Part shown: positions 2,051-38,943 of the stretch, in pieces
How the letters are laid out: the number at the start of each line of letters is the position of its first letter
How positions within the stretch are numbered: position 1 is the first letter of the stretch
DNA from: Escherichia phage mEp234
DNA length: 40,804 nucleotides
Sequence record: PV340539
Direction: 5' to 3' (one strand)
The notes under the pieces: generated by a model
The model's database searches: none
The model's input: only the letters and a program-made list of their open reading frames with translations
What the model was told of the DNA's origin: nothing
Made by a program: the position numbers and the translations under genes

Positions 2051-2218
2051 AGAAATCCCCGCGAGTGCGAGGATTGTTATGTAATATTGGGTTTAATCAT
2101 CTATATGTTTTGTACAGAGAGGGCAAGTATCGTTTCCACCGTACTCGTGACCTGCTCCCCGTTGATTAGTACACCCCGATGTTAGTAATGTCTTCATAAG
2201 CCACATGAGGACATCCCC

Positions 2219-2482
2219 ATGAAGAAGCGTTTTTCCGACGAACAGATCATCAGTATTCTCCGCGAAGCCGAAGCTGGGGTACCCGCCCGTGAACTCTGCC
2301 GCAAGCATGCCATTTCCGATGCCACGTTTTACACCTGGCGTAAGAAGTATGGCGGTATGGAGGTGCCTGAAGTTAAGCGCCTGAAGTCGCTTGAGGAAGA
2401 GAACACCAGACTCAAGAAGCTGCTTGCCGAAGCCATGCTGGATAAAGAGGCGCTTCAGGTGGCTCTTGGGCGAAAGTACTGA
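2219..2482 (+). CDS. IS3-family transposase OrfA (HTH DNA-binding part)
   Basis: 87 aa '[46 protein letters not shown]...' typical IS3/IS407 OrfA with leucine zipper. Confidence 0.9.
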
Positions 2483-2505
2483 CGACAGACCAGAAGCGGG
2501 AAGCC

Positions 2506-3339
2506 GTGATGTTGATGTGTGATGCGACCGGTCTGTCGCAACGTCGTGCCTGCAGGCTTACAGGTTTATCCCTGTCGACCTGCCGCTATGAGGCTCACCG
2601 TCCGGCTGCTGATGCGCATTTATCAGGGCGCATCACTGAGCTGGCACTGGAGCGCAGGCGTTTTGGCTACCGTCGTATTTGGCAGTTGCTGCGCCGTGAA
2701 GGGCTTCATGTTAATCATAAGCGCGTGTACCGGCTTTATCACCTCAGTGGCCTGGGCGTAAAACGCAGAAGACGTCGTAAAGGGCTGGCAACAGAACGTC
2801 TGCCGCTGCTCCGTCCGGCGGCGCCCAATCTGACCTGGTCGATGGATTTCGTCATGGACGCACTTTCCACCGGTCGCAGGATCAAGTGTCTTACCTGCGT
2901 CGATGATTTCACAAAGGAATGCCTGACGGTCACTGTTGCCTTTGGGATTTCAGGCGTTCAGGTCACGCGTATTCTGGACAGCATTGCACTGTTTCGAGGC
3001 TATCCGGCGACGATAAGAACTGACCAGGGGCCGGAGTTCACTTGCCGTGCACTGGATCAATGGGCCTTTGAGCATGGTGTTGAGTTGCGCTTAATCCAGC
3101 CGGGCAAGCCAACGCAGAACGGATTTATTGAGAGCTTTAACGGACGATTTCGCGATGAATGTTTGAATGAGCACTGGTTCAGCGATATCGTTCATGCCAG
3201 GAAAATTATTAATGACTGGCGGCAGGATTATAACGAATGCCGCCCGCACTCCACGCTGAATTATCAGACACCGTCTGAATTTGCAGCGGGCTGGAGAAAG
3301 GGTCATTCTGAGAATGAAGATTCCGACGTTACTAACTGA
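2506..3339 (+). CDS. IS3-family transposase OrfB (DDE catalytic domain); probably expressed as OrfAB fusion by -1 frameshift in 2446-2482
   Basis: 277 aa with '...[54 protein letters not shown]...'; frame -1 relative to orfA, open from 2446. Confidence 0.9.
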
Positions 3340-3368
3340 GTGTTGTATCTAATCGTGGGGGCAGGTCA

Positions 3369-3513
3369 CAACGGCGCTGTAGTTTGTCCATTCTTTCTTT
3401 TTTGTCTGGCGATCGTAATACTGAACGCCAGCACGGATGTTGAATCCGATATTTTCCCCGGCCTGAAACTCTCTTGCGGGCTTGTTTAGTCTTACAGTAA
3501 TCGAATGTGCCAT
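3369..3513 (-). pseudogene. 5' fragment (~48 codons) of a gene translationally coupled to erf, truncated by the IS element; weakly SSB/OB-fold-like
   Basis: ATG overlaps erf stop (TAATG); 'MAHSITVRLNKPAREFQAGENIGFNIRAGVQYYDRQTKKKEWTNYSAVV' then runs into the IS inverted repeat; no continuation beyond the IS. Confidence 0.45.
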
Positions 3514-7000: not shown

Positions 7001-7426
7001 TTATTTTCTAGATGATGTTGGGGACCAAGGTAACGTTATAGTATCTAACACTGTGTTTTTGAACATATTTTCAAAAACTGTTTTTGTACATACATATACA
7101 TAATTTTCAAAAAACCAAGCATTTTCATTATAAAAATCCTCAGTTACTTCTTCATCGAGGTCACACTCAAATGTTAGTGTCAAGGTAGCCTCTGCCTTGA
7201 ACAATACATCCTCACCATCATCAAAATCTTTTTTATCGCGAGGGAAACCAGTTATCGATGGCTTAACTTCAATAAAGAGCCAATTTCCATCTTCATCTTT
7301 TTGAGGAACAACGTGATGCTCAGAAAATTTTAAGCTATATTTTCCGCCTTCAGAATTATCACTGTCGTCGATAAAAAGGGAAGAACCCTCGAGATCAAAT
7401 CCCTTAAAGCGAATTTTATCAAGCAT
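7001..7426 (-). CDS. Strongly acidic 141-aa protein of unknown function, third gene of the rex-slot cassette
   Basis: ATG overlaps hicB-like stop (TGATG); D/E- and aromatic-rich ('DDSDNSEGG', 'DKKDFDDGED', 'ECDLDEEVTEDFYNENAWFFENY'); track ORF 7001..7462 starts at a TTG, the ATG at 7426 is preferred. Confidence 0.6.
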   Translation of the reverse strand: MLDKIRFKGFDLEGSSLFIDDSDNSEGGKYSLKFSEHHVVPQKDEDGNWLFIEVKPSITGFPRDKKDFDDGEDVLFKAEATLTLTFECDLDEEVTEDFYNENAWFFENYVYVCTKTVFENMFKNTVLDTITLPWSPTSSRK

Positions 7427-7899
7427 CAATGTGGCACTCCGTTGTCTACTGAAACTTCCCAATAGGTCTCTTCTGTACGTCTACGGGATGAGAAGAAAGT
7501 AACTTCTCTAACATCCCTCGGTTTTTCAAAGTGGTAGTGAACCTCTTTTTTCCCATTAACTGACTCACTGACAGCCTGTTTTACATAATCGTTTAAAGTC
7601 ATATTCTTAGCTTTAGCAGCTAAATATGCTTTTTTATGCAGGGATTCACCTATCCGGATGTTAAACGAACCACTCATTGTCTTATCTGGAGATTTTCCTA
7701 TCTCTTCACAAGTGGAGAGGTAATCGTCCACGGCCTCCTCAAAGGCTGCACGGAGTTCTGCAACCGTTGCACCCTCATAAGTGACGAGATCATTTATACA
7801 TTCGAGTTTTCCATGCATCACCCCATCTTCAAATGAAATGCTGGAGCTACCATAGTAACCTTTGTATTTCATCAAGTTATTCATGATCATCAATCTCAT
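7426..7899 (-). CDS. HicB-like antitoxin-family protein with ~45-aa C-terminal extension (start ambiguous: 7899/7890/7884/7872)
   Basis: '...MKYKGYYGSSSISFEDGVMHGKLECINDLVTYEGATVAELRAAFEEAVDDYLSTCEEIGKSPDKTMSGSFNIRIGESLHKKAYLAAKAKNMTLNDYVKQAV' matches the HicB fold/RHH pattern; overlaps hicA-like 3' end. Confidence 0.7.
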   Translation of the reverse strand: MRLMIMNNLMKYKGYYGSSSISFEDGVMHGKLECINDLVTYEGATVAELRAAFEEAVDDYLSTCEEIGKSPDKTMSGSFNIRIGESLHKKAYLAAKAKNMTLNDYVKQAVSESVNGKKEVHYHFEKPRDVREVTFFSSRRRTEETYWEVSVDNGVPH

Positions 7900-8131
7900 C
7901 TAACAGCTGTTTAACTTCTTCCAAGACGTACCTTTTGAGGGTGTTTTCAGGATGAGGCTCATGAAAAATGACCAATCTATCAACACGTTGGTTGTAAAAT
8001 TTACGGCCAGAACCTCGTTTAGCATTCAAAAGCTTGAAGCCATACTGGTTCATGAGAGTAACGAACTCATCCCAAGTAAAATTTTTGGGTAAGCCGTCTA
8101 ACTTTGACTTTAGCTTTTCCTTTCTTCCCAC
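7877..8131 (-). CDS. HicA-like (YcfA-fold) toxin-family protein, GTG start
   Basis: 84 aa; '...GFKLLNAKRGSGRKFYNQRVDRLVIFHEPHPENTLKRYVLEEVKQLL' resembles the HicA motif but has GSGR where GS(N/H)H is expected; toxin-first order as in hicAB. Confidence 0.6.
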   Translation of the reverse strand: MGRKEKLKSKLDGLPKNFTWDEFVTLMNQYGFKLLNAKRGSGRKFYNQRVDRLVIFHEPHPENTLKRYVLEEVKQLLDEIDDHE

Positions 8132-23003: not shown

Positions 23004-23681
23004 ATGCCTGAAATCGTAAAAACGCTGTCCTTCGACGAGACAGAAATCAAATTCACCGGTGACGGTAAACAGGGGATTTTTGAAGGCTACGCCTCTGTTT
23101 TTAATAACACCGATTCCGATGGCGACATCATTCTGCCCGGGGCGTTTAAAAACGCGCTGGCGAACCAGACCCGAAAAGTGGCGATGTTTTTTAACCACAG
23201 GACGTGGGAACTGCCGGTTGGCAAATGGGACAGCCTGGCTGAGGACGAAAAAGGCCTGTATGTGCGCGGTCAACTTACCCCAGGACACAGCGGCGCCGCT
23301 GACCTAAAAGCGGCAATGCAGCACGGTACGGTTGAAGGTATGTCGGTTGGCTTTTCCGTTGCGAAAGACGATTACACCATCATTCCAACAGGCCGCATTT
23401 TTAAGAATATCCAGGCTCTGCGCGAAATCAGCGTCTGCACTTTCCCCGCCAACGAACAGGCTGGCATCGCAGCCATGAAAAGTGTCGATGGCATTGAAAC
23501 GATTCGTGATGTGGAGAACTGGCTGAGGGATTCAGTCGGCCTCACCAAATCACAGGCAGTTGGGCTAATTGCCCGGTTTAAGTCAGCGATTCGGAGCGAG
23601 TCCGAGGGCGACGGAAACGAAGCACAAATAAACGCTCTGCTTCAGAGCATCAAATCTTTCCCTTCTAACTTAGGTAAATAA
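23004..23681 (+). CDS. Prohead maturation protease (HK97 family)
   Basis: ~225 aa between portal and major capsid; track start 22992. Confidence 0.8.
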   Translation: MPEIVKTLSFDETEIKFTGDGKQGIFEGYASVFNNTDSDGDIILPGAFKNALANQTRKVAMFFNHRTWELPVGKWDSLAEDEKGLYVRGQLTPGHSGAADLKAAMQHGTVEGMSVGFSVAKDDYTIIPTGRIFKNIQALREISVCTFPANEQAGIAAMKSVDGIETIRDVENWLRDSVGLTKSQAVGLIARFKSAIRSESEGDGNEAQINALLQSIKSFPSNLGK

Positions 23682-34146: not shown

Positions 34147-37100
34147 ATGGCTACAGATAAAGTGTTAAAAGGCCGCAAGGGCGGCAGCTCAAGTTCCCGA
34201 ACCCCTACCGAACAGCCTGATGATCTGCAATCTGTAGCGAAGGCAAAGATCCTCGTTGCGCTTGGGGAAGGGGAGTTTGCTGGACAGCTCACCGGGAAGG
34301 ATATCTACCTGGACGGAACAGCGCTGGAGAATGCTGACGGCTCCCAAAACTTCAGCGGGGTAACGTGGGAGTTTCGCGCGGGAACGCAGGCGCAAAAATA
34401 TATTCAGGGTATTCCCGGTACCGAAAACGAGATCAGCGTAGGAACTGAGGTATCAAGTGCCACAGCCTGGACGCGCACGTTTACCAATACGCAGCTTTCA
34501 GCAGTTCGCCTGCGTCTTAAATGGCCCTCGCTTTTCAAACAGGAAGACGACGGCGATCTGGTGGGTTACTCGGTCAATTATGCGATTGACCTGCAGACGG
34601 ACGGCGGCACATGGCAGACGGTACTCAATACCAGCGTGACCGGCAAAACGACGTCTGGTTATGAGCGCAGCCACCGTATCGATTTACCGCAGGCTGGCAG
34701 CACATGGACAATACGTCTGCGTAAGATTACCTCTGACGCCAACAGCGCGAAGATCGGCGACACGATGATGCTGCAGAGCTTCACCGAGGTGATTGATGCC
34801 AAACTGCGCTACCCGAACACCGCGCTGCTCTACGTCGAATTCGACTCAAGCCAGTTCAACGGCTCTATTCCTCAAATTTCATGCGAACCGCGCGGCCGCG
34901 TTATCCGCGTTCCAGATACCTACGACCCTGAAACCCGCACTTATAGCGGTACATGGACCGGTGCGTTTAAGTGGGCATGGACGGATAACCCTGCGTGGAT
35001 TTTTTACGACCTGGTTGTTTCTGACCGGTTTGGCCTCGGGCACCGTTTGACCGCTGCGAATATTGATAAATGGACTCTTTATCAGGTTGCTCAGTATTGT
35101 GATCAGATGGTACCAGACGGCAAAGGGGGCAACGGTACAGAACCACGCTATACCTGCAACGTGTACATTCAGGACCGGAACGACGCCTACACAGTCCTGC
35201 GTGATTTTGCCGCTATCTTCCGTGGCATGACCTACTGGGGCGGGGATCAGATTGTGGCCCTGGCTGACATGCCGCGCGATGTTGATTACAGCTATACGCG
35301 CGCTAACGTTGTTGGCGGTCGCTTCACCTATTCGAGCAGCACCACGAAAAGCCGCTACACCACAGCGCTGGTTTCATGGTCAGATCCGGGTAACGCTTAT
35401 GCCGACGCAATGGAGCCGGTATTTGAGCAGGCGCTGGTGGCGCGATACGGCTTCAATCAGCTGGAAATGACAGCCATCGGCTGCACCAGGCAGTCAGAGG
35501 CGAACCGAAAGGGGCGCTGGGGTATTCTCACCAACAACAAGGATCGCGTTGTTTCGTTTGATGTCGGGCTGGACGGAAACATTCCGCAGCCGGGCTACAT
35601 CATCGCCGTGGCAGACGAGCTGCTTTCCGGAAAGGTTATGGGCGGCCGCATCAGCGCCGTTAACGGTCGCGTTATCAAACTTGACCGCGTAGCTGATGCA
35701 GCACCAGGTGATCGCCTTATTCTCAACCTGCCTTCCGGAGCGTCGCAGAGCAGGACCATTCAGGCCGTGAACGGGGAATCAGTCACAGTCACCACGGCAT
35801 ACAGTGAGACGCCACAGGCCGAAGCTGTTTGGGTTGTTGAATCTGACGAGCTTTACGCGCAGCAGTATCGTGTTGTCAGCGTCTCCGACAACGGTGATGG
35901 CACTTTCTCAATCACCGGCGCATGGCACGACCCGGATAAATATGCCCGCATCGATACCGGAGCCATCATTGACCAGCGGCCGGTGAGCGTGATCCCGCCT
36001 GGTAACCAGTCGCCGCCTGCGAACATCGTGATCAGCTCGTTTTCCGTGGTGCAGCAAAATATCAGCGTCGAAACGATGCGCGTGAGCTGGGACCAGGCGC
36101 AGAACGCTATCGCCTATGAAGCGCAATGGCGCCGCAACGACGGGAACTGGGTTAACGTGCCGCGCACCTCCACCACGTCATTCGACGTCCCGGGGATTTA
36201 TGCCGGGCGCTACCTGGTGCGGGTGCGCGCAATCAATGCCGCAGAAATTTCATCCGGATGGGGCTATTCAGAAGAGAAAACGCTGACGGGTAAAGTGGGC
36301 AATCCACCGAAGCCGGTTGGCTTCATCGCTTCTGAAAATGTGGTTTTCGGCATCGAGCTGAACTGGGGATTCCCGGCGAATACCGACGACACGCTGAAGA
36401 CGGAAATTCAGTACAGCCTGACCGGAACCGAGGACGATGCGATGCTGCTGGCCGATGTGCCTTATCCGCAGCGCAAATATCAGCAGATGGGCCTCAAGGC
36501 TGGGCAGATTTTCTGGTACCGCGCTCAGCTGGTGGACCGCAGCGGCAACGAATCAGGGTACACAGAATGGGTGCGAGGACAGGCCAGCATCGATGTTTCC
36601 GACATCACAGATGTGATCCTGGAGGACATGAAAGGCTCCGATACGTTCAAAGACCTGATCGAGAACGCTGTGGACAGCAATGAAAAAATTGCTGGCATGG
36701 CTGACGAAATCAAAAACCATGCCGACGAACTCGAGCAGCAGGCGAAAGACATCCAGGAAAACGCTGACGGGCTGGCCCAGGCCGAAGTGAAGATCGACGA
36801 GATTTCTGTGTCGATGGATGGCATGACGGGAGGCGTGAAGAACTCGGCAATCGCGATTATCCAGAATGGGCTGGCGCAGGTTGTCAGTCGTCGTTCCCAG
36901 ACCGCGACAAACGCAGGGAACAGCGCCAGCATTGACCGTATCGACACGACCATAGCCGACACCAGCTCGGCGGTTGCTCGCGCGCTGGTGACGCTGGATG
37001 CTTCAGCTGGTGGGAATATCTCCAACTCTACCGATCTCACTGAAACTCTGGCCGATTTCACGCAGGCATCGGCGACAAAAATTAACACCCTGAATGTTAA

Positions 37101-37602
37101 ATCTGGCGAAAACAGTGCCGCGATAAATGTCAACGCACAGGCTATCGCAGATGTAAACGGTAACCTAAGTGCGATGTACAACATCAAGGTTGGTGTCTCC
37201 AGCAATGGACAGTATTACGCCGCGGGGATGGGTATCGGCGTGGAGAATACGCCATCCGGCATGCAGTCGCAGGTTATCTTCCTGGCTGATCGCTTCGCCG
37301 TCACCACGGCGGCCGGAAATAGCGTGGCTTTGCCGTTCGTGATCCAGAACGGGCAGACATTCATCCGGGCCAGTTTCATCCAGGACGGCACTATCAGCAA
37401 CGCAAAGATTGGTAATTTTATCCAGTCGAACAATTATGTTGCTGGTTCTGCTGGCTGGAAGCTTGATAAAGGGGGGACGTTTGAGAACTACGGTTCGACT
37501 GCTGGTGAGGGAGCCATGAAACTGACAAATCAGACGATCAGCGTCAAAGATGGCAGTAATGTTCTTAGGGTGCAGGTTGGCCGATTAACGGGAGTATTCT
37601 GA
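34147..37602 (+). CDS. J: Central tail fibre / host specificity protein J-like
   Basis: 1151 aa; conserved J-like N-terminal two-thirds with fibronectin-type region; divergent C-terminus. Confidence 0.9.
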   Translation: MATDKVLKGRKGGSSSSRTPTEQPDDLQSVAKAKILVALGEGEFAGQLTGKDIYLDGTALENADGSQNFSGVTWEFRAGTQAQKYIQGIPGTENEISVGTEVSSATAWTRTFTNTQLSAVRLRLKWPSLFKQEDDGDLVGYSVNYAIDLQTDGGTWQTVLNTSVTGKTTSGYERSHRIDLPQAGSTWTIRLRKITSDANSAKIGDTMMLQSFTEVIDAKLRYPNTALLYVEFDSSQFNGSIPQISCEPRGRVIRVPDTYDPETRTYSGTWTGAFKWAWTDNPAWIFYDLVVSDRFGLGHRLTAANIDKWTLYQVAQYCDQMVPDGKGGNGTEPRYTCNVYIQDRNDAYTVLRDFAAIFRGMTYWGGDQIVALADMPRDVDYSYTRANVVGGRFTYSSSTTKSRYTTALVSWSDPGNAYADAMEPVFEQALVARYGFNQLEMTAIGCTRQSEANRKGRWGILTNNKDRVVSFDVGLDGNIPQPGYIIAVADELLSGKVMGGRISAVNGRVIKLDRVADAAPGDRLILNLPSGASQSRTIQAVNGESVTVTTAYSETPQAEAVWVVESDELYAQQYRVVSVSDNGDGTFSITGAWHDPDKYARIDTGAIIDQRPVSVIPPGNQSPPANIVISSFSVVQQNISVETMRVSWDQAQNAIAYEAQWRRNDGNWVNVPRTSTTSFDVPGIYAGRYLVRVRAINAAEISSGWGYSEEKTLTGKVGNPPKPVGFIASENVVFGIELNWGFPANTDDTLKTEIQYSLTGTEDDAMLLADVPYPQRKYQQMGLKAGQIFWYRAQLVDRSGNESGYTEWVRGQASIDVSDITDVILEDMKGSDTFKDLIENAVDSNEKIAGMADEIKNHADELEQQAKDIQENADGLAQAEVKIDEISVSMDGMTGGVKNSAIAIIQNGLAQVVSRRSQTATNAGNSASIDRIDTTIADTSSAVARALVTLDASAGGNISNSTDLTETLADFTQASATKINTLNVKSGENSAAINVNAQAIADVNGNLSAMYNIKVGVSSNGQYYAAGMGIGVENTPSGMQSQVIFLADRFAVTTAAGNSVALPFVIQNGQTFIRASFIQDGTISNAKIGNFIQSNNYVAGSAGWKLDKGGTFENYGSTAGEGAMKLTNQTISVKDGSNVLRVQVGRLTGVF

Positions 37603-37603
37603 A

Positions 37604-37906
37604 ATGGCTTATGGAATACAGACCTGGGATGCTTCAGGAAAACCCAACAACTATGGCATCAAACCCGTTTCCGTCGTTGGGCGAATACAGCTGGCTGCCG
37701 GGCAAACCTCCGGCAGCTGGTCTTTTACGGTGCCCTCAGGAATGAAAGTTGGTTTTGTTCTTTCACTTGATGAAGGAGGTAACAGCGTAGGGCGGCGCAT
37801 TGTCGCGTCAGGGAGCACAATAACCGTAAGCGCTGCATCTTCTGTAGGTCTGGGTAATTATCCGGCCTCAAAGTGTGAAGTGGTCGTTTTCATGGAGAAA
37901 GCATAA
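37604..37906 (+). CDS. Hypothetical protein (100 aa) downstream of J
   Basis: ORF tightly coupled to J stop. Confidence 0.5.
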   Translation: MAYGIQTWDASGKPNNYGIKPVSVVGRIQLAAGQTSGSWSFTVPSGMKVGFVLSLDEGGNSVGRRIVASGSTITVSAASSVGLGNYPASKCEVVVFMEKA

Positions 37907-38544
37907 TGGCCGAATTTGGCGCGATGATATTAATGGACAACGGGAACCCATTTGTAACGCCCCAGTCAACGCCTTTTTGTCTTTACGGCAAGTACACTTT
38001 CAACTCCTCTGCTAATGGCAGTTCGCAGCAGGTTGCTCAGAATATTGCATTAAATGCTGACTACCCTGTGATGGTATTTATCAGGACCACAAATACCGCC
38101 CAGCCCACGCCAGTAATATCTTACCGGAACGGCGGAAATATATATGTCGCGGGGGTTAATCCCTATAACCAGAGCTTCACGTTAACCGCATATATTTTTG
38201 CCATATTTCCCCAGACGTTACCGAAATGGGGGATGGCCATCTGGGATTCGAGCGGGAAGCTGGTACTCACTAATGAGTCCCGCGTGCTGTCAGACTTGCA
38301 GACAATCGGAACGCCTGGAGCAAACGGCGGGATTAACATTGACCAGACGCTTGATGGTTCATGGGCAGTGGCTCCATCAAGGCTGGGGCAAGTGAACAGA
38401 AACGACGCTTACTCATCTTGTAGGTATTCAGGCACAAGTACAAGAATAAACGCCGGTACAGCCGCAAATACACCTGGCGGTGCTGGAGGGGTGATAAATA
38501 ATGGAATTATCCTGACAGCAATTAAAACAGACGCCTATGATTGA
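37906..38544 (+). CDS. Hypothetical protein (212 aa) downstream of J; shares a short 'WD(A/S)SGK' segment with the preceding ORF
   Basis: ATGA-coupled to the 100-aa ORF. Confidence 0.5.
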   Translation: MAEFGAMILMDNGNPFVTPQSTPFCLYGKYTFNSSANGSSQQVAQNIALNADYPVMVFIRTTNTAQPTPVISYRNGGNIYVAGVNPYNQSFTLTAYIFAIFPQTLPKWGMAIWDSSGKLVLTNESRVLSDLQTIGTPGANGGINIDQTLDGSWAVAPSRLGQVNRNDAYSSCRYSGTSTRINAGTAANTPGGAGGVINNGIILTAIKTDAYD

Positions 38545-38651
38545 TTGTTTTGAGCGATCAATAACAAATAATTTATCTATCTAATCAATTATATCCATCG
38601 ATTATGTATTGGTATCTTCGAAGCTACTGAATACCTCTGGATACTATCAAA

Positions 38652-38885
38652 ATGAAAAGGCTAATTATCTGCATAGCGGGCGCTTTAATGCTGTCTGGTT
38701 GCGCTGGTGTACTTGAGAAACAGAAACCGATTTGCAGCGGCACGGCATATATGGGTGGCCATGAGAATACCGTTATGATTTACGCCGTTCGAAAGCAAAA
38801 CAACCAGACGCAATACCGGGCCGGATATCCCTTTAACTGGCGCTGGGTAAGTGCGAACACATTCACAAGCACGACATGTAAATAA
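38652..38885 (+). CDS. Small lipoprotein (77 aa), Cor-like superinfection-exclusion candidate
   Basis: Signal peptide + lipobox 'LSGCAG'; AT-rich upstream region and downstream hairpin/U-run; typical position for lambdoid cor genes. Confidence 0.55.
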   Translation: MKRLIICIAGALMLSGCAGVLEKQKPICSGTAYMGGHENTVMIYAVRKQNNQTQYRAGYPFNWRWVSANTFTSTTCK

Positions 38886-38905
38886 CTCATGATTTTCAAT
38901 GCAAA

Positions 38906-38927
38906 CCTCGCCTCGGCGGGGTTTTTT
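38906..38927 (+). terminator. Putative intrinsic terminator after lipoprotein gene
   Basis: GC hairpin 'cctcgcctcggcgggg' + TTTTTT. Confidence 0.45.
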
Positions 38928-38943
38928 ATTGCCTGGAGAAAAT

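Follow-up and report, generated by a model that had tools for sequence, protein, structure and literature searches.

The cor locus of an integrated mEp234 prophage and its association with an HK022-type, FhuA-dependent tail tip

The 77-codon reading frame preceding the side tail fibre gene in this prophage is best explained as cor, which serves lysogenic conversion and superinfection exclusion in lambdoid prophages of the HK022/mEp234 type, a reading to which a probability of about 0.92 can be attached. Both the identity of the product as Cor and FhuA as its target are near certain. The window (the whole stretch of 40,804 nucleotides analysed here) is an integrated mEp234 prophage, permuted at its att site and 100% identical to JQ182732 except for one insertion sequence. 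This 1222-bp element (window positions 2148-3369) sits between positions 23242 and 23243 of JQ182732, inside the HK97 gp40-like ORF mEp234_028, and encodes a 277-aa transposase with rve and HTH_21 domains (2506-3339); identical copies, annotated as 'IS3-like element ISSen4 family transposase', occur 20 times each in E. coli C and WG5. The GenBank table also lists a HicA/HicB toxin-antitoxin pair in the immunity region, between PL and the cI repressor gene (mEp234_037/038), which coordinate transfer places at about 7426-8131 of the window. The features of the cor locus itself are collected in Table 1.

Table 1. Position of cor, its flanking genes and the signals considered in the text (window coordinates)
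Feature	Position	Strand	Remarks
J, central tail fibre / tail-tip protein, 1151 aa	34147-37602	+	'central tail fiber J' in mEp234
Post-J ORF 1, 100 aa, first cassette gene	37604-37906	+	PHROG 557, E 2e-36
Post-J ORF 2, 212 aa, second cassette gene	37906-38544	+	PHROG 425, E 1e-74
Candidate promoter A (sigma-70), CTGACA-18-TATGAT	38512-38541	+	10/12 matches; inside 3' end of upstream ORF
AT-rich conserved non-coding spacer/leader of cor, 107 bp	38545-38651	+	29.0% GC
Candidate promoter B, TTGTTT-16-AATAAT	-35 at 38545-38550, -10 at 38567-38572	+	8/12 matches
Weak SD-like GGA 5' of cor	38639-38641	+	from sequence
cor, phage exclusion lipoprotein precursor	38652-38885	+	77 aa plus stop
Cor signal peptide codons	38652-38699	+	
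Cys17 codon	38700-38702	+	
Mature Cor, 61 aa	38700-38882	+	
Rho-independent terminator of cor	38903-38930	+	9-bp stem, 4-nt loop, T-run
stf ribosome-binding site, GGAG	38935-38938	+	5' of ATG 38944
Side tail fibre gene (stf-like), 422 aa	38944-40212	+	PHROG 1591, E 7e-180; Pfam PF25670, E 2e-58

Identity and coding features of Cor

Profile searches place the product of the reading frame (MKRLIICIAGALMLSGCAGVLEKQKPICSGTAYMGGHENTVMIYAVRKQNNQTQYRAGYPFNWRWVSANTFTSTTCK) in the Cor family. The NCBIfam equivalog NF047972, 'phage exclusion lipoprotein Cor', is matched with 138.8 bits (E 4.2e-41), more than four-fold above the 31-bit cutoff of the model, in a full-length alignment in which residues 1-76 cover positions 1-76 of the 78 in the model. 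A match with an E-value of 2.4e-37 is obtained to PHROG 1119 ('Cor superinfection exclusion protein'). With an E-value of 4e-41 to the Cor equivalog model, the observation of this ORF exceeds what chance would provide. Furthermore, the protein is 100% identical to the Cor of HK022 (AAF30376.1), and the same sequence is found, across 23 database records, in HK022 and in ten other sequenced lambdoid phages (HK75, HK106, HK446, HK542, HK544, HK633, mEp234, mEp235, mEp506, and mEpX1); identity is 79% to the Cor of phi80, 64.5% to that of N15 and 35.5% to that of T1. Over the 2.7 kb surrounding cor, the window is 100% identical to mEp234 and HK446, and the GenBank records of these two phages already show the gene, as 'Cor protein', together with its rho-independent terminator in the corresponding places, while the HK022 gene is annotated as 'moron gene product; gp27; phage exclusion'. 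The first-pass annotation of this DNA had described a 77-aa ORF with a signal peptide and an LSGC lipobox, had read it as a Cor-like exclusion lipoprotein, and had proposed a homology search against the Cor family; the ORF and its signals are present, and both the curated Cor equivalog model and the identity to HK022 Cor bear out the reading at the level of sequence.

Megablast matches to the locus are limited to 9 of 5426 complete E. coli genomes, and the label assigned by PGAP to the gene in nine complete genomes carrying it is 'cor: phage exclusion lipoprotein Cor'. Two laboratory strains, XL10-Gold (NZ_CP081008.1) and JCL301 (NZ_CP107281.1), contain a phi80-type cor locus (78.9% identity to the present one) that presumably stems from phi80-derived constructs. 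Pfam has no family for Cor, returning only noise (MiAMP1, E 0.12; LPAM_1, E 0.94), and the PADLOC defence models give no match for Cor or for the two ORFs upstream of it.

The precursor begins with a type II signal peptide, MKRLIICIAGALM, made up of an n-region (MKR), an h-region (LIICIAGALM), and the LSGC lipobox, in which Cys17 occupies position +1 and is followed by an alanine at +2. From these features and the known E. coli pathway, export of the 77-aa precursor by Sec would be followed by lipidation of Cys17 and removal of the signal peptide by signal peptidase II. Across 44 aligned homologues, with identities down to 56%, Cys17 and Cys76 are invariant, Cys28 is nearly so, and a RAGYPFNW motif is conserved. 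Cys28 and Cys76 align with cysteine pairs in T1 Cor and in the Llp lipoprotein of T5, and a putative disulfide between them probably clamps the mature protein. Comparison with phi80 reveals 88-90% identity at first and second codon positions and 57% at third positions, and the corresponding values for N15 are 74-75% and 32%, a pattern indicative of purifying selection on the protein.

Receptor specificity and the genes upstream of cor

The tail-tip gene upstream of cor points to the receptor on which this Cor should act. J is 91% identical overall to HK022 J and its last ~165 residues (~987-1151) are identical, so that its C-terminal receptor-binding end is, on sequence grounds, of the HK022, FhuA-dependent type. 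The receptor of HK022 is encoded by fhuA (PMC6814406). Since the exclusion protein is HK022 Cor itself, J ends as HK022 J does, and HK022 uses FhuA, FhuA is the expected target of this Cor, and the earlier statement that the target receptor was unknown proves too cautious. As a whole, J is a mosaic with respect to its HK022 counterpart: the two proteins agree completely or almost so over the N-terminal 840 and the C-terminal 165 residues, and residues ~842-988 (36670-37110) are divergent and contain a 32-residue deletion.

Published work on Cor is in line with this assignment. The Cor proteins of HK022, N15, and phi80 guard lysogens against FhuA-dependent phages through FhuA inactivation, with lower ferrichrome uptake as a cost and protection against colicin M as a benefit, and exclusion of FhuA phages together with impaired FhuA functions has likewise been published for the Cor of mEp167, according to the summary of this work given in PMC3594210 (citing Uc-Mass 2004). 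In the mEp collection of lambdoid phages from which mEp234 derives, FhuA dependence and cor are said to predominate (Hernandez-Sanchez 2008, as cited), and in mEp234 itself cor has been treated as dispensable and exchanged for a kanamycin cassette (PMC7986917). Given the identity to the studied protein, this literature argues that the Cor encoded here would exclude phages and inactivate FhuA in the same manner. Cor-like proteins are also known from BtuB-dependent phages (PMC13164509), and Rtp45 acts on LptDE (PMC12685063), which might suggest that Cor here targets a different outer-membrane receptor, such as BtuB or LptD. Such a target is nevertheless extremely improbable for a protein that is HK022 Cor residue for residue, that comes with a J matching the J of FhuA-dependent HK022 exactly at the receptor-binding end, and that is accompanied by a two-ORF cassette reported only with FhuA-dependent phages (PMC13164509).

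The placement of cor after J and two post-J ORFs, and ahead of the side tail fibre gene, was correctly recognized in the first-pass annotation, which also likened it to the position of cor in phi80, N15, and HK022; the order J-orf-orf-cor-terminator-stf is common to all three phages. The HK022 locus shows no difference from the one analysed here, sharing flanking gene order, spacer (99% identity) and terminator, whereas the prophage around it is of the mEp234 type, with lambda immunity and a different integrase and att site. The Cor proteins of phi80 and N15, the original lysogenic-conversion proteins, share lipobox, cysteine pair, position and a terminator before stf with the present one, and N15 differs in a segment of ~150 extra bp between the cor stop codon and the terminator. 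In the virulent phage T1 (Drexlerviridae), Cor has the same lipoprotein architecture and cysteine pattern, and its gene also adjoins homologues of both post-J ORFs, but this gene runs on the other strand, convergently to the two ORFs, and its product acts in lytic instead of lysogenic conversion (PMC11990801).

The two post-J ORFs have no significant match to a Pfam, NCBIfam or PADLOC family, and no fold is recognised for their products. Post-J ORF 1 is 55% identical to CPTT1_046 of T1 and post-J ORF 2 is 51% identical to CPTT1_047, so that both are better conserved with respect to T1 than Cor (35.5%). A three-gene 'cor cassette', tied to the FhuA-dependent phages T1, HK022, N15, ES18, and phi80, has been described, as PMC13164509 relates it from Wietzorrek 2006. 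Post-J ORF 1 is present in HK022, phi80, and N15, and absent in HK97, a LamB phage in which J leads straight to stf. Neither cor nor either of the post-J ORFs is found in HK97, whose J also ends differently at the C-terminus. Homology between the window and HK97 returns only at the stf ribosome-binding site, at about position 38935, and HK97 therefore does not display the pattern of a single-gene insertion, in which the flanking genes would lie adjacent to each other when the insert is missing. The absence of the whole block from HK97 hence identifies cor as the last gene of a receptor-specificity block, and its position directly 3' of the FhuA-specific tail-tip module implies that exclusion specificity is passed on along with receptor specificity. 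A more speculative suggestion is that the post-J ORFs act as partners of Cor, in a three-component exclusion cassette, or are themselves the true FhuA-binding tail-tip proteins, with the related notion that the conserved cor leader may hold a regulatory element governing expression of the gene in the prophage state; on present evidence this appears rather unlikely.

Transcription signals and moron status

The non-coding spacer upstream of cor is AT-rich, as the first-pass annotation had observed: its GC content is 29.0%, whereas the genes on either side have 48-55% and the window as a whole 49.7%. Its identity is 80.4% to phi80 and 45% to N15, and the value for phi80 exceeds that of cor third codon positions in the same comparison (57%), which indicates that the spacer is under constraint. 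FhuA is Fur-regulated, and a Fur box was for this reason looked for in the spacer, where the best match (10/19) falls under the mean of shuffled sequences (11.4) and was discarded. Repeats in the spacer amount to short imperfect inverted ones (9-11 nt), none of them compelling.

A consensus scan combined with comparison to HK022, phi80, and N15 located no convincing conserved promoter for cor. Candidate A, inside the 3' end of the upstream ORF, has the better consensus match and reads TTGACG-18-TACGAT in the corresponding columns of N15, but HK022 and phi80 read TATGAC and thus lack the T at the sixth position of the -10 element; since it is preserved in neither of these two phages, it is not accepted as an established promoter. 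Candidate B matches the consensus less well, and its -10 element is positionally conserved, with phi80 reading GATAAT at the same columns. Promoter-like sites near cor are not enriched, with 2 observed and 4.6 expected from shuffles.

The terminator agrees with the GC hairpin and U-run initially noted after the gene. Its hairpin (38903-38924), AAACCTCGC-CTCG-GCGGGGTTT, comprises nine pairs, five of them G-C, and is followed by a T-run reaching to near 38930; the 50 nt around it fold with -16.1 kcal/mol (z = -2.64 against dinucleotide shuffles). The same terminator is annotated in mEp234 and phi80, and it is 86-93% conserved with respect to phi80 and N15, whereas conservation is lacking in the stretch from the cor stop codon to the hairpin. 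A match to the Rfam istR family over the 3' end of cor and the terminator (38786-38927) reaches 24 bits against a gathering threshold of 45 (E 0.043), and was rejected as due to chance or driven by the terminator. A mechanically generated ORF list starts stf at ATG 38899, which would make it overlap the cor terminator. Most likely the gene begins instead at ATG 38944, the start given in GenBank and the point from which stf is conserved with HK97.

These observations qualify the initial description of cor as a self-contained moron. The terminator half of that description is solid, but a promoter was not located and the comparison with HK97 shows cor travelling in a larger block instead of alone. 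In a lysogen, a weak promoter within the conserved AT-rich spacer or immediately ahead of it would probably drive cor, and the strong terminator would end the transcript. In the lytic cycle, late transcription antiterminated by Q should run through the gene as well; the scan revealed no terminator separating cor from the upstream ORF, so that late transcripts should enter it. An alternative is that cor is no autonomous moron but the final member of the receptor-specificity block (the J C-terminus, the two ORFs and cor), transcribed mainly with the late operon and acting chiefly in lytic conversion, where it would spare progeny phage adsorption to cell debris, instead of in exclusion by the prophage. 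Besides the uninterrupted entry of late transcripts, such an arrangement would fit the failure to find a conserved consensus promoter, the lack in HK97 of the entire block and not of cor alone, the association of the cassette with FhuA phages (PMC13164509), and the use of Cor and Llp for lytic conversion by the virulent phages T1 and T5 (PMC11990801). On the other hand, conservation of the spacer above the synonymous level (80% versus 57%) suggests regulatory content, the strand of T1 cor, opposite to that of its two cassette ORFs, indicates that the gene is separately transcribed from its own promoter there, the HK022 gene is annotated as a moron, and Cor is credited with protecting lysogens in the account that PMC3594210 gives of Uc-Mass 2004. 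Expression in the lysogen and from a late operon are, moreover, not mutually exclusive, and a mainly late-operon role for cor appears doubtful, if worth weighing, next to its assignment as a lysogenic-conversion gene.

Fold, mechanism, and consequences for the host

The mature protein of 61 residues was modelled with AlphaFold2 on the alignment of 44 sequences, giving a mean pLDDT of 84.6 and five beta-strands; as modelled, mature Cor is a small five-stranded SH3-like beta-barrel, and it shares the fold of T5 Llp (PDB 8A60). A Foldseek comparison of the Cor model with Llp gives an E-value of 0.47, with generic Tudor/chromo SH3-like barrels ranking better by this measure. Llp and Cor have precursors of equal length (77 aa) and mature proteins of equal length (61 aa), and all three cysteines of the two proteins align, the Llp sequence having been verified against GenBank; identity in the alignment is 19%. 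Searches of PDB sequences with phmmer (single protein) and hmmsearch (44-member profile) did not find Llp, returning matches to TraV and DotD that were dismissed as lipoprotein signal-peptide noise, and hhalign between the Cor family and Llp aligned residues 1-31 only, spanning the signal peptide and first cysteine. In view of this lack of a match at the sequence level, the relationship between Cor and Llp is argued from fold, cysteine pattern and function. The two also differ in context, as Llp is an early gene of the virulent phage T5, unlike Cor here.

For Llp, structures have been determined in complex with FhuA (PDB 8A60) and in free form (PDB 7QJF), and the protein sits on the periplasmic face of FhuA, where it refolds the extracellular loops allosterically and keeps the phage receptor-binding protein off (PMC9586334). 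[quoted passage not shown] The authors of PMC9586334 and two 2026 papers conclude that Cor, that of HK022 included, has the Llp fold and probably its mechanism. By analogy with Llp, a similar mechanism is likely for the Cor encoded here, although inferred. According to this scheme, which draws on the fold match and on published Cor work, mature Cor would bind the periplasmic face of the TonB-dependent transporter FhuA and lock it, leaving the extracellular loops in a state that refuses FhuA-binding tail tips. If FhuA is locked with loops that do not accept tail tips, FhuA-dependent phages (HK022-type, phi80, N15, T1, T5) would consequently be blocked at adsorption or DNA entry, at the price of less ferrichrome uptake by the cell.

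The same lack of significant sequence homology between Cor and Llp leaves room for a different route, in which Cor would not bind FhuA in the manner of Llp and would exclude phages indirectly, acting through or depending on other outer-membrane proteins (such as the major porins or OmpA) and so changing the environment or assembly of FhuA. The title and the citations of Arguijo-Hernandez et al. speak for such a route, and a 2026 preprint states that the mechanism of Cor 'has not yet been elucidated'. An indirect mode of exclusion is nonetheless quite unlikely, and direct, Llp-like action on FhuA is the preferred reading.

The cor gene and its name, the terminator, the moron status, the FhuA receptor, the linkage to the cassette and the predicted Llp-like fold were all already known from GenBank annotations and the literature, and the practical value of assigning cor in this prophage is one of annotation, with its content on record wherever sequence can assess it. 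For the bacterium that carries the prophage, the assignment predicts that cor should confer resistance to FhuA-dependent phages such as T1, T5, phi80, and those of the HK022 type, and that ferrichrome uptake of the host is lowered and its sensitivity to colicin M and albomycin probably diminished.
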